Source: Trichodelitschia bisporula
Taxonomy: Eukaryota
DNA length: 64,000 nt
Assembly (NCBI GenBank): GCA_010356995.1
Contig: ML996688.1
Location: 1,648,579-1,712,578, forward strand
Reading direction: 5' to 3'
Shown here: positions 53,238 through 60,178 of the stretch, one piece after another
Numbering within the stretch: the stretch's first letter is position 1
Layout of the letters: the number at the start of each line of letters is the position of its first letter
The notes under the pieces: model-generated
The model's database searches: none
What the model saw: only the letters and a program-made list of their open reading frames with translations
Told to the model about the DNA's origin: nothing
Made by a program: the position numbers and the translations under genes

Positions 53238-53965
53238 TCAAATGACAACCGCAACCATGCCCGCCGCACCAAGCACGCCCACCGCCCAGGCACCTACCCG
53301 ACCGGCACCCGAACTCGGCTTCGCGGCCGCAGCCGTGCTCGCCGCCGAGCTGGCGGCCGAGGACGTCTTACCGCCCGACGTGGTAGTCCCATTCGGGCTG
53401 GCGTCGGCCTGGGCCCCGCTGAAGAGGGTAGCCGTCACGCCGGTGCTGTTCTTGCAGTGGTCGGTGTAGTCGGATGTGGAGAGGGGGGCGTCAGTGAAGG
53501 TCACGTCGGCGCACTGGCAAGGTTCGTTAGTGCTTGCTCAAGAACTTGATATAGGGGGGGGAGGAGACAAACCTGGTACAGCCCACCACTCGGATCGCCA
53601 TTCGTGAGCACCAGGATGGTGCCGTTGTCCCCTGCCTTAACGCTGGATGGGACGTTAACGCCGCCGATGCAGAAGTTGTCAGGGCCGTTTTCTTGGAATT
53701 GTTGACGGAGGACGGTCGTGAAGTCGTCCCCGGTAGGCGAGTTTCCGGTTGCCAGCAGGACTTTGCCCTTCACGGCTGTGTGCTCCATGTTGAGCTGGAT
53801 GGGGGCGTTGGTGAGCGGGAAGGGCGTGCGGGTGGAGCTGGGACTGTCGAAGCCGCCGCAGGGGTAGGCGACGATCTTGTCTTCATCGAAGCCACGGGCT
53901 GGGGGCCAGACGAGATGGAAGTGGGCGAGGGTAAGAGTTGGGAGGAGGAAGGCTGTGAACCGCAT
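53238..53965 (-). CDS. GPI-anchored copper-binding His-brace protein (Bim1/X325 LPMO-like copper acquisition factor), ~222 aa
   Basis: Signal peptide MRFTAFLLPTLTLA followed directly by His (HFHLVWPPARG), PCGG, second His (NMEHT), FCIGG, NGDPSGGLYQ/CADVTF, Ser/Thr/Ala linker and hydrophobic GPI-type tail; intron 53514-53572. Confidence 0.85.
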
Positions 53966-55513
53966 TTTGGCGGTTGGGGATAAGACTGAATTGGGGGGTG
54001 ATTTTCTGGCGCTGAGAAAGATGGGCGGGGGTGTGCTTCTGGTGTTGAAAAAGATGGGAGGGGAGTTGATTTATATGGGAGTGCGAGCAGAGAAACTCGT
54101 CAGGGCGAGGAGACGGTCTTGGATGTGGGCCGTGGATGGAGAAGTGGAGGCGTAGCCAGAGAACAATGGAAATATCGACTGCAAGAGGGGATGCACACGT
54201 CAAGAGCAGTCAATTGCGAAGCCCGAACCAAAGGTAGAAAGCACAGTTAAAGTACCGGAACGCAGCTACTTTTAAGCCCCGCCCCCCCCCGCCTCGCGCC
54301 TTCTCAAATGCCAAACGCGTTGCGCCAGAGGACACCAAATTCCCTTCGCGGCTGGCGTCCCTGGAATGAGCGCAGGCGCGGCAAAAGCTTGACTTCCCCC
54401 AAGGATCCGGCTCGACGGCACTGTTTGTCTGCTGTACCTTCATGCGGCTGACTTGACACCGCGGATCGGGCTCGGTGCGACATCGCTTTCGGAGTTTGAA
54501 GTGGAGTTTGAAGTCATGTTCCCGTGACGCCGATCGGCGACCCGATGTGCTATTTCTCCGCCGTCTACTACGTAAACCACAGTTACTGGTCCCATCACAT
54601 CGTCCAAACCATAGTTCTACCTACCCAACATTATTTAACTTCGCCGGTCTCCTCCCCTCCCAAACTATCCATCATCCCTTCCTTCAAAACCTCCCATCGC
54701 CCCTTCGGTTTCCAAATCAGCCCATCTCCAAAACTCCCGCTCCGCCAAAATCTCACACCCCGCCAACTGCGCAAGATTGAGCACATTACCCCACCACGCT
54801 CCGCATGTCGACCCGCGCCAAAAAAAGCGCCACCACGACTCAGACCCGCAGGTGGGATGGCGGTTAGCCTAGCGTGGCGCGGCGTGGCTTGCCGCTTGCC
54901 GCAAACAGCACATCCACCTCCCCCTCCCCCTCCAAAAATCCCACCTTCACGCTTGCCCTACCGTGTACACTAACCTCGCGGCCCGCGCATAGGCGAGTCG
55001 CACTGACCCGGATCGTGGGAGGATTTTCATGAATGTTAGGGCGGCAGGGCTTAGAGGGGAAGGTCGAGGCCGGGAATGGAATGTGCCCCTTCAGTGCACG
55101 GCTTCCCGGCGATAATCTGCAGGGCTGTGCGCGGGACGTGACGATGGGTATCCCTGCTGGGCTGGGACGCCACAAGGCTTGTTTTGTGCTGGGGTCGGTA
55201 GTGGAGGGTGGGGCGGGAAACGGTACGTATTACGGTACCGCAAGTTGCTCCGGGTCAGGATGGGATACGTTTCGGTGGTCGTGTGCAGGTTACGAGTAGG
55301 ACACAGCAAGAGATAAAGAACAGGTTGGAGGAATGATGAATGATGGAATTAGTTCTAGCGGCCATTTGTCACTCATTCCAGTTTGAGCGACACAACCAAT
55401 GTATACGTGCTGCCGACGTACGACGCCCACCGAATGCACCCCAAGGCCAGCCCAATCCAGTACCAAAATTCCAAACTCCAGACACGCCATTGCTCCACCG
55501 GGCCCAGAGAGTA

Positions 55514-56149
55514 TCAGTGATGCTCTTCCACCGCCAGGTTATACCGCCCCAGCAGCAGCTCGCCTAGGAACGTGCCCCCCAATATGGACAAGAAGTAGCC
55601 GACGTTGAGCGTCATAACGGCCAACATGCTACATCGTCCCCATTAGCATTTGGTCATTGCGAGGATCTAGAAGCACACTCACAGCAAATACCCCACCCCC
55701 ACAATAACCGTCACAACGCACGCCCTCGGCCCATCCACACTCCACCTCCACGGCACAACCCCATGCACCGGCCGATGCACAACCTTAACCTCCTCCTCCA
55801 CGCCATTCGCCGTCAGCAACGCTGTCTTCACATTCGGCTCCGTGCTCGCGCGGGCCTTCTCTGCGACCGAAGCCTTATCCGCGACGACTACGAAGCGCCT
55901 GTCCCAGGCTTTATCGATCCAGCGCTTTTCGAGGATGTGTTTATAGACGAGGAGTGCGCGGAAGATGCCCGCGAGAGCGATGAGGAAGATGCAGGTGCCG
56001 GCGTAGCTGCCGGTGCTGTTGGGGGTCCAGTGTTGGGAGTAGAGGGGGGTGTGGGGGGAGGTGAAGAAGGTCATTTTCATGTCGGAGGCGTCCATTGTCA
56101 TGGCGGAGGCGGGTGCGGCCGCGAGGGCGGCGAGAAGAAGAGAAACCAT
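55514..56149 (-). CDS. Ctr-family copper transporter
   Basis: Met motif MTMDASDMKMTFF, TPLYSQHWTPNSTGSYAGTCIFLI, PWRWSVDGPRA, GYLL/MLAVM (MxxxM), GTFLG (GxxxG), C-terminal EHH; intron 55629-55682. Confidence 0.93.
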
Positions 56150-57345
56150 GGGAGTGGGGGCGGGTTGAGGGTTTGCGTGAAGTGTGGACGGTGCAGACGT
56201 GAGGGCGAGGAGTATTGATGTGCGATTTAACGGCGGATAGACATACGTCGAGTTCGAGTCGAGTCGAGGTGTTTGTGGAGGTTGAGTGTGGGGAGAATCC
56301 TCACACAAGGGAAAATTAGTGGCCGGTGCCGGGTGTCGCGGGCGCGGGCGCGATTAGAGCAGGAATTGATGATGTGAGCGGGGTGTGGAACGGCGCGGGG
56401 GCCAGCGCGCATTGTAAGAAGACCGAGTCTCTTGAGTCGTGGATTTACCTCCGCGACGACAGGCGGCCGAGAAGACGAGCGCTTAGGAGTTCCTTTTTCC
56501 GCCTGGAGGTGGACTTGTCCTTGTTCTTCGCATTACTCGACTTGCGGCGTTCTCTCACGCGCAAGTTGGGATGTCGAACTGGACCATAGAAGTCGCTCGA
56601 GAGAACCCGGGGTGTGCAGGTAAGAGAGACGCGACTAGACCCGTCGTGGCGAAAACCTTCTCAATCATGCGCACACCAACCTGAGAGGCTGGGCGGGAGC
56701 GGAGACGTCAAACAAAGAAACCTGAGGGGGTTTGCGGCGCCTCTTGAGTCTCCGAGTACACGATGCTTCGTGCCTGAATGCGCGCGGCTGTTATGCGCTG
56801 CTGTTAAGCTTGGGGTTTTATATATGTGTGGGTTATACTTCAGTCCAATACGACTCTGGACCTCGAGACTGTGCGTCAGTTTTGTCTCTGATTGTGGCTT
56901 GAGGCGCTACCCGTAGTGGGATAGGTGGGAGTGGCGGGCTGCTAGTGGGAAGTCCAAGCTCCCTTGATATGCCGACCATCTTGGGCAGGCCGATGATACG
57001 ACCCACACATCTTTTGTCGGCTCATCCTCCTTCCCGCTTTAGGACTTTGCATGGTCTTGCTGGAAAGAATTCCAATGGTTGCAGAAGTAGTCGCTTTGGA
57101 CGCAGTGCGAGTCTGACAGGTTTGAAGTCTTCTCTTGGGCTGTTCCCGGGCGCGTGGTCATCCGTACGGCCCGAGAGTGTGGAGCTTGCTTGCGACTGCG
57201 ATTCCTACGTTCTCATCCGCTTTTACATCTCACCTCACTTCGCATCGCACCTCTTTCTACCGTCTCTCTTATACTCCATTCTCTGCCTATGGTACCTCTT
57301 CCTCGTATACTCCGAGTCGATATCTAACCCTCCATCACCGCCATC

Positions 57346-59662
57346 ATGATGGACATGGACATGGGCGACATGGACATGGGCGCCGGCTCAATGTCCATGG
57401 GCCCGGGCATTCCGTCGCTCTTCGAAGTCCAGAATGCGTACTGGGCTGTAATCGGTGCTGCTGTTGGTGTAGCATTTCTGGCCAACCTCACAAACATGTT
57501 CTTGCACCGTCAACGGTACGTCTCCTCTAGTGTCAAAAGTTGTGATCCTTTGCTCATCGTACTGCAGACTATACGCCGCGCGCAATGGCCTCCCCTCCCC
57601 CGCAAAGCCGAAATCGCTCTTCTTCACGCTGTACGCAACCGTGACGGCAGTCATACGGGAAGCGTCAAACGCGACATTAACACCGCTCAAAATCCGCAAC
57701 TACCATGTGCGCATGCCAACGGTAGGCCAAACCGTCCTAGTACTCGCCAACATGGTCGTCCTCGTCGTGCTCTGCTTCTACGGGTTCGACACCACACTCC
57801 GTGTCAATTTCGAAAACATCGGGTATCGGACTGGGTTCGTCGCCATTGCCCAAATGCCGTTGTTGTTTCTGCTGGCCGGGAAGCATAACGTCATCGGCTG
57901 GCTCTCCGGCATGAGTTACGAGCGGCTGGCGTGGTTGCACCGCTGGGCTGCGCGCTGTTTCCTGCTCACTACTTTCCTTCACTTTGGCTACTGGTTGGCT
58001 GATTGGTGGCCCTATGGCGCGTGGAAGTACCAGAAGATGGCTGGTGATCCGATCACGAAGCACGGCATCATCGCTTTCGCTGTCCTGCTCTGGATTGTAG
58101 TCTCCAGCTCCATGCCTATTCGGGGATGGAACTACGAGTTCTTCGTCGTCCAACACTTGCTCTCGTTCACTGCCTTTGTCACGATGGTCTACATCCACAC
58201 GCCCGTCGAAGTTCACCCCTGGATCTGGGCCTGCGTGGGCATTTTCTTCTTCGATCGCGTCACTCGCTGGCTTCTCGTCCTTTACACCAACATCTCATAC
58301 TTCCACCCGAAGCAACGCGCCTCAAAAACCATGACCGGTCCATGGGCATGCCGCGCCCAATTCACACCCCTCTCCAACGACACCACACGTATCACCGTCC
58401 ACGACCCTCCAGTCAATTGGGCACCGGGCCAACACGTCTTCCTCTCCTGCCACAGCGTCGTCCCATTGCAAAGCCACCCCTTCACCATCGCCTCGATCCC
58501 CCGCGACGGCAAGATGGAATTCTACGTCAAATCCGAAGGCAAAGCCACACGCTCCTTCTTCCGCCACGCCGAGCGCCAACATGGCGCCCTTCCCGTCGAC
58601 GAGCGCGGGATCCAGCGCTCCGAAGTCCGCACCGTCGCCATCGAGGGCCCATACGGTCGCGTCCGCCCGCTACGCCAATTCGACTCCGTCGTTTTGATAG
58701 CCGGTAGCTCCGGCGCTAGCTTCACGGTCCCCCTACTACGCGACATCGTCACAGGCTGGGCCGAGCCCTCCACACCTTCGTCGTGGAAGGACTGGATCAC
58801 CCCCCGCGGCGTAGCCACACGCCACGTACGCTTCGTGTGGGTCGTCAAGGCGCGCGGCCAGGCGGAGTGGTTCGCCTCGCAGCTCTCAGAGGTCGCAGCC
58901 GAAGTCGTCGCTCTGCGCGAAGCGGGCCTATCCATCGAAGTCGAGATGTCAGTCTACTGCACCTGCGACGACGGCTTCACGGCCGAGCACCGCTCCTTCC
59001 TCGCCGAACTCGCCCGCGCGGTCGGCGACGGCGGCGAGAAAGTCCGGGGTCATCTCCCAGGTGGCCGTGGCACGCCGCTGCCCGAGAAGCTGCCCGAGAA
59101 GGAAATCGAGGCTAAGAACGGCACGACGACGACTGAGTACGCTGTCAGCCCTGCCCCCGGCCGTGTCAGCATCGATGACGCTGAGGCTGAAGGGTGTGGG
59201 CCGAACGGGTGCTGCTGCAAACGCGAAGTCGAGGATGAAGACGAGGCGGGCGAGGCCGCGGAGTGCTGCTGCTGTGGGCCCGCTGAGGGCGACAACGGCC
59301 GTATAAAGGACACGCCTAGCACCGCTGCCACCGCGCCCAGCGATGCGAAAATCGAACCCCCAAAGCCCGCCGACCGCCCGACCTCCCTTGCGACAACCAC
59401 ATCCTGGACAGCCGGCGCCACGCCACGGAAGAGCCTGCTTCATCCGCGTATTGCGGTGCTATCGGGCCGTCCAGCGTGTGCGAATGTTATCCGGAAGAGC
59501 CTGGAGCAGGCGAGGGGGGAGAGTGCGGTGGTGGTGTGTGGGCCCGGTGGGCTTGTGAGTGATGTGCGGAGTGCGGTCGTGGGGCTTAGTGATGAACGGG
59601 CTGTGCATAAGGGGACGGGGGCGCAGGGGATTTGGTTGCATTGTGAGGGGTTTGCGTATTAG
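57346..59662 (+). CDS. Fre-family ferric/cupric metalloreductase
   Basis: Heme His pairs (LHRWAAR...LH; QH...IH), HPFT FAD motif, EGPYG, IAGSSG, VVCGP, C-terminal EGFAY; intron 57516-57567; N-terminus MMDMDMGDMDMGAGSMSMG. Confidence 0.93.
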
Positions 59663-60178
59663 GGTTGGGTATGGTGGAGTTTTTGGGGGTAGGGGGTGGG
59701 TTGGGAAGGCGTTTGGTGGGACATTGTTTGTGATGGTTAGGAACATCGTCATACTTGGAAGGCGCACCTATGTGAAGAAGGACAGCTTCTTCTTGATACC
59801 TTGGAAATGCCATAATGCTATTATCTCAATGCGCTGAACATTGCTTCAAAAATGAATGTGTCTCGTCTTTTCTTGCTCACATCTTGCCGGCTAGATGGAG
59901 TGAGAGACCGTATTCATCCTGATGGGAGCAATGGCTCGTTATGCACGTCAAGGCAACTGTAAAAGTGAAGATTGAAGTAGAAGACAAAGAGAGGAAGAGA
60001 GTCAGCGACTCTCGAGATTTTTATATGCGATGCCAAATATCCTACTTTGCTCCTTCCCTCCATCATGAGCTCAATACATCATGTCCCTTACATAAGAATG
60101 CTCCTTCCATGCCTACATAACCTTCTTCACATGCAGCAAAAGCTCTAACCCAGCATGGGATGAAAGGGCAAAAAGGGT

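Follow-up and report, generated by a model that had tools for sequence, protein, structure and literature searches.

What holds an X325/BIM1-like surface protein, a Ctr copper permease and a Fre metalloreductase together on a fungal chromosome? The question is raised by a 64,000-nucleotide stretch of the Trichodelitschia bisporula genome (contig ML996688.1, forward strand; hereafter the window), in which the genes of these three proteins are direct neighbours. The original prediction, made from the DNA letters alone, had read them as a functional cluster for the capture, reduction and import of copper. Our analysis indicates that X325-Ctr-Fre is probably a conserved module of three genes that serves high-affinity copper uptake by the reductive route. 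Since the block is kept in distantly related fungi, it also suggests a role in copper uptake for the poorly understood surface protein X325.

The locus occupies positions 53238-59662 of the window. X325 and Ctr are on the minus strand, and Fre is on the plus strand, divergent from Ctr:

53238..53965, minus strand: gene of the X325/BIM1-like glycosylphosphatidylinositol (GPI)-type putative cuproprotein, 222 amino acids, with a PF20238 match and an RNA-confirmed intron
Exon 1 53965-53573, intron 53572-53514, exon 2 53513-53238, minus strand: exon structure of X325
55514..56149, minus strand: Ctr copper permease gene, with PF04145 on both exons and an RNA-confirmed intron
Exon 1 56149-55683, intron 55682-55629, exon 2 55628-55514, minus strand: exon structure of Ctr
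56150..57345, unstranded: shared divergent Ctr-Fre intergenic region, 1196 base pairs (bp) between the start codons
57346..59662, plus strand: Fre/NOX-type metalloreductase gene, 754 amino acids, with PF01794, PF08022 and PF08030
Exon 1 57346-57515, intron 57516-57567, exon 2 57568-59662, plus strand: exon structure of Fre

Searches with profile hidden Markov models bore out all three identities that the original prediction had assigned. Exon 1 of X325 matches PF20238 at E 9e-28, its 97.9 bits lying above the cut-off of 27, PF04145 is found on both exons of Ctr (E 5e-22 for exon 1 and 2e-07 for exon 2), and Fre matches PF01794, PF08022 and PF08030 (Ferric_reduct, FAD_binding_8 and NAD_binding_6). 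The divergence of Fre and Ctr, given beforehand as about 1.2 kilobases (kb), corresponds to the 1196 bp between their start codons. RNA evidence comes from assembled contigs of two runs from one sample. These contigs exactly skip all three predicted introns, indicating that the runs hold RNA, that the three genes are transcribed and that the splice sites are right. The origin of the window is borne out by a protein match at 100% identity that NCBI assigns to T. bisporula, and the Ctr and Fre models match that species as well. Neither an iron permease nor a ferroxidase was found within the three-gene block by the open reading frame listing or by tblastx. A single RNA contig of 5048 nucleotides, covering 54676-59829, runs from Ctr across the entire intergenic region and through Fre and lacks both introns; divergent transcripts that overlap, or a merge during assembly, could account for it.

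Conservation of the linkage was surveyed by scanning metagenome contigs with the X325 alignment, which gave 46 loci, and by tblastn with the window exons. Dereplication of these loci at 90% identity left 25 lineages, 18 of them with enough flank to judge. The anchors of this survey were relatives from the same X325 clade, with 39-58% identity, and the loci were placed to class level. The following arrangements were observed:

12 lineages: Fre, Ctr and X325 in the order and orientation of the window (Fre<- ->Ctr ->X325)
2 lineages: Ctr followed by X325, the contig ending before a possible Fre
1 lineage (L033): Ctr downstream of X325 and convergent with it
3 lineages (L010/L012, L026, L037/L039/L040): at least 5 kb of upstream flank, with neither Ctr nor Fre
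7 lineages: contigs too short to judge

Ctr adjoins X325 in 15 of the 18 informative lineages, and X325 stands in tandem directly behind it in 14. Fre is present and divergent from Ctr in all 12 lineages whose contig reaches beyond Ctr. The linkage on which the idea of a functional cluster depends is thus found well outside T. bisporula. When positions 40-64 kb of the window were compared with the loci by tblastx, only the three genes matched, with 13-42 loci per 500-bp bin. The flanking bins matched 0-2 loci, except for the bin 55000-55499 just past the Ctr stop codon (4 loci). Since the genes match but their flanks do not, the block is kept as a unit and not as a piece of a larger syntenic region. 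Furthermore, the recurrence of the same order and orientation in 12 lineages with unmatched flanks places the adjacency beyond chance; the X325-Ctr-Fre linkage in this clade is not a coincidence.

The block is also widely spread. According to a tree of 51 X325 sequences and to the best named matches, the linked lineages comprise a Leotiomycete clade (support 96/99), several Dothideomycete groups and a clade with named proteins of Lecanoromycetes, which are lichen-forming fungi. Of the unlinked lineages, two group in a single clade that is starred in the tree, and the third is a long-branch outlier. Close tags are likewise seen in Verruconis gallopava, for X325 (PV09_00418) and Fre (PV09_00420). 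The Verruconis Ctr is not among the best 120 of 400 Ctr matches, so that the adjacency of tags concerns X325 and Fre only. In several further species, matches to X325, Ctr or Fre lie on contigs of identical length, for example 73,092 in Tothia fuscella and 148,265 in Lepidopterella palustris, which is a weak hint of linkage.

The intergenic regions of the block were then compared with the binding site of a known copper regulator. The consensus obtained for Fusarium oxysporum Mac1 by chromatin immunoprecipitation sequencing is DHNTGCTCANNN, according to the available text of PMC11563359, and its core equals the TGCTCA element considered here. Motifs were counted in 12 sequences, namely the window and 11 relatives (L014, whose Fre start was not found, was excluded), with 500 dinucleotide shuffles as the control:

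TGCTCA, Fre-Ctr intergenic region: 16 observed versus 9.4 expected, reached by 17 of 500 shuffles, in 11 of 12 sequences
TGCTCA, Ctr-X325 intergenic region: 17 observed versus 9.5 expected, reached by 6 of 500 shuffles, in 10 of 12 sequences
TTGCTCA, Ctr-X325 intergenic region: 11 observed versus 2.6 expected, reached by 0 of 500 shuffles, in 7 of 12 sequences
54768..54785, minus strand: double element TGTGCTCAATCTTGCGCA, resembling a copper-response element, between Ctr and X325, with the X325 ATG about 800 bp downstream of it

The double element contains a match to the bipartite pattern TGCTCA-N4-T[GT]C[TG]C at 54769-54783. This pattern occurs in the Ctr-X325 intergenic region, that is, the X325 promoter, in 8 of the 12 sequences, the window included. 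The Fre-Ctr intergenic regions (12 kb) and the other sequence scanned (153 kb) yield one occurrence each, and the mean under resampling is 0.04. Every one of the 11 relatives carries at least one TGCTCA between Fre and Ctr, and the nearest approaches to this core in the window are CGCTCA and TGCTCT, some 215 bp ahead of the Ctr start codon. Counts of canonical motifs confined to the window gave no information: TGTGCTCA was found 3 times where 2.3 were expected, and TTTGCKCR 10 times where 10.5 were. A scan of the window for GCTCA was set aside as too unspecific, and the k-mer ATGGACATG was rejected as a regulatory motif, being N-terminal coding sequence that encodes MDM.

Two further motifs stood out in these regions. 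The E-box TCACGTGA is enriched between Fre and Ctr in 6 of the 12 sequences; CACGTGA is counted there 9 times versus 1.3 expected (reached by 0 of 500 shuffles, 6 of 12 loci). Neither the Ctr-X325 regions nor the Ctr-Fre region of the window itself contains CACGTGA. A second regulator may act on the Ctr-Fre pair in some lineages. GCCAAG, often as the tandem GATGCCAAGATGCCAAGA, is enriched in both intergenic regions (L013, L041, L019, L044 and others).

Part of this arrangement has well-described counterparts. In Aspergillus nidulans, ctrA and freC diverge from a common promoter bound by Mac1, and the same arrangement is reported from 110 of 127 species (PMC7705104). In F. oxysporum, a cluster that is bound by Mac1 and induced at low copper comprises ctr3, fre9 and FOXG_07771, the last called a 'SAM domain-containing protein' (PMC11563359). 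Both pairs resemble the locus in the divergence of Ctr and Fre from a common promoter, and both are described as Mac1-controlled and copper-repressed, but the accessible parts of the two papers describe no X325/BIM1-like third gene (PMC7705104, PMC11563359). FOXG_07771 does not occur in the supplementary files of PMC11563359 that were searched (12 of 17). The original prediction needs correcting on this point: conservation and Mac1 control of the Ctr-Fre half are already in print. X325, as the third gene, extends the known pair to a trio.

A counterpart for the X325 side comes from Cryptococcus neoformans, whose Bim1/Cbi1 works with Ctr1 and is needed for growth at low copper (Garcia-Santamarina et al. 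2020, as related by citing papers). Bim1/Cbi1 is, like X325, a PF20238 protein of the GPI-type, described as a His-brace surface protein and proposed as a Ctr partner at low copper. The X325 studied here is encoded directly behind Ctr with a divergent Fre, in an order kept in ascomycete classes. A more distant likeness is offered by bacterial CopC-CopD, where a His-brace copper protein is encoded, in the descriptions at hand, beside the membrane copper importer that it presumably serves. CopC-CopD differs in its unrelated fold and transporter, its periplasmic location, the lack of a reductase and its organization as a prokaryotic operon.

Expression data from other ascomycetes point in the same direction. 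In Pseudogymnoascus destructans, the BIM1-like genes BLP2 and BLP3, both CTR genes (CTR1a/b) and three Fre genes rise together when copper is withheld, and BLP2 (VC83_03095) and the Fre gene VC83_03096, both induced, bear consecutive tags, according to the available text (PMC12113139). These tags, however, leave no Ctr between BLP2 and Fre, and the adjacency passes without comment in that text. Given this induction of BIM1-like genes, the original view of an unsettled X325 role in ascomycetes is no longer fully up to date. Similarly, young spherules of Coccidioides immitis show an increase of about log2 7 for 'expression library immunization antigen 1' (CIMG_10032) as well as for a copper transporter (CIMG_10037), according to PMC8150946. 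The two genes are five tags apart, and no connection between them is drawn in the portion of PMC8150946 that was accessible.

Among the sources covered, no published statement was found on a linkage of X325/BIM1-like genes to Ctr-Fre; the founding X325 and Bim1 papers and the supplements of other papers lie outside this coverage. The Ctr-Fre pair and the cooperation of Bim1 with Ctr1 are already known. Provisionally, the novelty appears to lie in the conserved grouping of all three genes, in the double element of the promoter and in the motifs of the reductase described below.

Turning to the proteins, X325 carries the residues of a putative copper site. His15, the putative first residue of the mature protein, follows the signal-peptide-like MRFTAFLLPTLTLA, and A14-H15 is invariant in alignments of 12 (A1) and of 50 (A2) sequences. 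For H62, conservation is complete in A1 and at least 90% in A2; N122 never varies, and for G123 and D124 the figure is at least 90%. The His after the signal peptide, the second His and the Asp of the NGD motif, all named in the original prediction, are thus present and conserved. We take H62 and D124 to be the probable copper ligands beside His1, in keeping with the LaX325 structure. An Asp carboxylate on copper is described in the accessible part of the literature on histidine-brace proteins. Four Cys residues are present, at positions 36, 99, 132 and 151. The C-terminus consists of a Ser/Ala/Gly-rich linker and a hydrophobic tail (AWAVGVLGAAGMVAVVI), both of which are kept in homologues and by eye resemble a GPI signal.

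The sole Protein Data Bank match of the X325 family profile is LaX325 (6IBH, E 9e-22), with His15 aligned on residue 1 of the chain. An AlphaFold2 model was obtained for exon 1 only, and the last strand, encoded by exon 2, is missing from it (predicted local distance difference test score 76.5). Foldseek with this model returned four LaX325 chains at the top (template modelling scores 0.68-0.70), followed by weak matches to AA10 lytic polysaccharide monooxygenases (LPMOs). The modelled fold is an LPMO-like immunoglobulin-type β-sandwich. LaX325 of Laetisaria arvalis (6IBH, 6IBI, 6IBJ) is thus the best match in both sequence and fold, and His1, the second His and the segment ...GGLYQCADV align. 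On the other hand, LaX325 comes from a basidiomycete and shares about 24% identity with X325 when the structures are aligned, and the position of the Asp ligand is deduced from alignment. LaX325 is not known to act in copper uptake.

The public model of X325, P0001, is partial and uses another intron, reading LYQVSSTNEPCQCADV. This intron was rejected, since the RNA contigs and all homologues support the LYQ|CADV splice (intron 53514-53572). RNA contigs also cover 54176-54647, a part of the Ctr-X325 intergenic region without a conserved open reading frame; they may come from an extended 5' leader on the X325 transcript, or from non-coding RNA.

Ctr displays the Met motifs and the MxxxM that had been read from its sequence: an N-terminal MTMDASDMKM, MLAVM (the MxxxM of the second transmembrane helix) and, in addition, GGTFLG (the GxxxG of the third). 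The protein measures 193 amino acids from the first ATG and 177 from the second, at 56101. The NCBI model P0098 (177 amino acids) has the same splice and starts at the second ATG, and the N-termini of relatives begin with MDMS/MxM stretches that match this second ATG, which is the more likely start as judged from these sequences. The in-frame upstream ATG (56102-56149) would add a signal-peptide-like extension of 16 amino acids, MVSLLLAALAAAPASA.

Fre, whose protein is 100% identical to NCBI model P0218, has H-x13-H heme pairs at residues 181 and 253, HPFT at 360, GPYG at 417 and VCGP at 713. With this set of motifs, the enzyme looks catalytically complete. Two other regions of Fre drew our attention:

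57346..57408, plus strand: Met-rich N-terminus MMDMDMGDMDMGAGSMSMGPG, before the first transmembrane helix, predicted extracellular
59195..59275, plus strand: Cys cluster CGPNGCCC-(acidic)-CCCC in an insert of the NADPH (reduced nicotinamide adenine dinucleotide phosphate)-binding domain, on the predicted cytosolic side

Both regions were examined in the best 120 homologue models, 64 of which include the first transmembrane helix. A Met-rich N-terminus (at least 3 Met and at least 1 MxM) is present in 57 of these 64. The stretch preceding the helix has a median length of 23 amino acids, with 20% Met versus 1.3% in the remaining protein, and at least 2 His are found there in 17 models. Met-rich Fre N-termini could also be read from 11 of 12 loci, and in relatives such N-termini occur on both Ctr and Fre. 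With its MxM repeats, the Fre stretch resembles the Mets motif of Ctr ectodomains. Behind the first helix comes a loop with many Arg and Lys residues, and the cytosol is where NOX-type domains begin; the N-terminus of Fre should therefore be extracellular, as is the Mets motif of Ctr. As for the Cys cluster, 117 of the 120 homologues have one CCC run or more, 102 have C-x(2-6)-CCC and 56 have at least two runs. We propose that the Met-rich N-terminus could be a site for Cu(I) hand-over outside the cell; the Cys cluster may be a cytosolic site for Cu(I) binding, Cu(I) sensing or regulation. Together, these motifs could explain both the hand-over of Cu(I) and the switching off of uptake. Neither motif is described among the listed literature matches on Fre and Met motifs, which concern Ctr1 only, and this does not prove novelty.

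Considered together, the cluster is very probably a low-copper uptake module, and a relay of capture, reduction and import is a well-supported interpretation of it. Fre would be a plasma-membrane cupric reductase of the FreC/Fre9 kind, sharing its promoter with a divergent, small Cu(I) permease of the Ctr3/CtrA type. X325, encoded directly downstream of Ctr with a promoter of its own, would be a GPI-type protein binding surface Cu(II) by a His brace and an Asp. Under copper limitation, a Mac1-type activator would turn on the three genes, an induction that we infer for T. bisporula as well. X325 would then take up scarce Cu(II) at the interface of wall and membrane, Fre would reduce the captured Cu(II), and the Met-rich ectodomains of Fre and Ctr would catch the resulting Cu(I) and pass it, presumably from protein to protein, to the Ctr pore.

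A bolder version joins several of these points: an ancient, selected block of Leotiomyceta, a Mac1-type double element, a physical relay at the cell surface and a shut-down through the Cys cluster. Here, X325 would offer the Cu(II) held in its His brace to a dedicated cupric reductase, at the heme face of the enzyme, and the extracellular Mets motif of Fre would catch the Cu(I) product for the Mets motif and pore of Ctr. The cytosolic Cys cluster (CGPxGxCCC...CCC) would sense the imported Cu(I) and shut the system down. We regard this combination as tentative and, all parts taken jointly, doubtful. If true, X325 would be the substrate adaptor of a reductase, and the Fre enzyme would hold two unrecognised copper sites.

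X325 could instead be co-regulated with its neighbours without feeding Ctr, serving in wall remodelling or protection under copper stress, or buffering surface Cu(II) against redox damage near the reductase. Indeed, a GPI-type protein may finish in the wall. Loss of Cbi1/Bim1 in Cryptococcus is reported, in the sources available, to alter cell-wall chitosan and copper stress resistance, and the same sources tie X325 homologues of Podospora, Epichloe and Isaria to growth, cell fusion and synnema development. The tandem position behind Ctr (14 of 18 informative lineages) and the Mac1-type element nevertheless fit acquisition better, and Cryptococcus Bim1 is itself reported to be needed for low-copper growth through Ctr1. 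We thus find a role outside copper uptake unlikely.

X325 could also be a passive bystander, its neighbourhood being retained without any coupling and the Ctr-Fre pair being the sole functional unit. The published conserved unit is this pair alone (PMC7705104, as far as accessible), some X325 lineages are unlinked, and the third gene in Fusarium is otherwise annotated (PMC11563359, likewise). However, it is the three genes that are conserved and not their flanks, with order and orientation held between fungal classes. Furthermore, the X325 promoter itself has retained a cis-element of the copper type, and the accessible data for P. destructans and C. immitis show joint induction of neighbouring homologues (PMC12113139, PMC8150946). 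Passive retention is, in view of this, very improbable. That the module serves iron or another metal, with Fre as a ferric reductase and Ctr and X325 as secondary members, is the kind of reading invited by the label 'ferric-chelate reductase' on reductase homologues in the sources and by the ability of Fre enzymes often to reduce Fe(III) and Cu(II) alike (PMC7705104, in part), but it is hardly credible for a block without iron permease or ferroxidase, with a member of the copper-specific Ctr family, with Mets-type and Cys-cluster motifs on the reductase itself, and with counterpart pairs in Aspergillus and Fusarium reported to respond to copper and Mac1 (PMC7705104, PMC11563359).

Several observations weigh against an uptake module of three co-regulated genes. 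Three of the 18 informative X325 lineages are unlinked, and L033 is arranged differently. The survey starts from X325, so that its counts give the frequency of Ctr and Fre at X325 genes and not the reverse. The bipartite pattern was set post hoc, after its sites had been viewed in context. The RNA evidence for T. bisporula consists of contigs from one sample. The Fusarium third gene FOXG_07771 is annotated otherwise than X325 in the accessible part of PMC11563359. In P. destructans, BLP3, the most strongly induced BIM1-like gene, and both CTR genes bear distant tags (available text of PMC12113139). X325 mutants of other ascomycetes are reported, in the sources seen in part, with developmental and not copper phenotypes. 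Finally, the window's own Ctr-Fre intergenic region (1196 bp) holds zero exact TGCTCA. In this respect, the locus differs from A. nidulans ctrA-freC, and the double element lies in the X325 promoter instead. The co-regulation put forward in the original prediction consequently stands in part: it is favoured by the conserved double element, the enrichment of TGCTCA and the co-induced homologues of P. destructans and C. immitis, but not by the Ctr-Fre promoter of T. bisporula. Co-regulation of the three genes is accordingly supported only indirectly.

X325/BIM1-like proteins are widespread fungal His-brace proteins, and the only role tested by experiment, in the literature accessible, comes from one basidiomycete yeast. 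Mutants in ascomycetes showed, in the same literature, developmental phenotypes or none. A block kept across fungal classes together with a copper-type element is independent evidence that places one X325 clade in reductive copper uptake. It further bears on database entries. Some PF20238 homologues (P0003, P0023 and P0074 among them) have odd names. Those labelled 'expression library immunization antigen 1' are suggested by the present data to be copper-acquisition factors. For other PF20238 proteins, the name 'nascent polypeptide-associated complex subunit beta', which comes from one source, is probably a mis-annotation.

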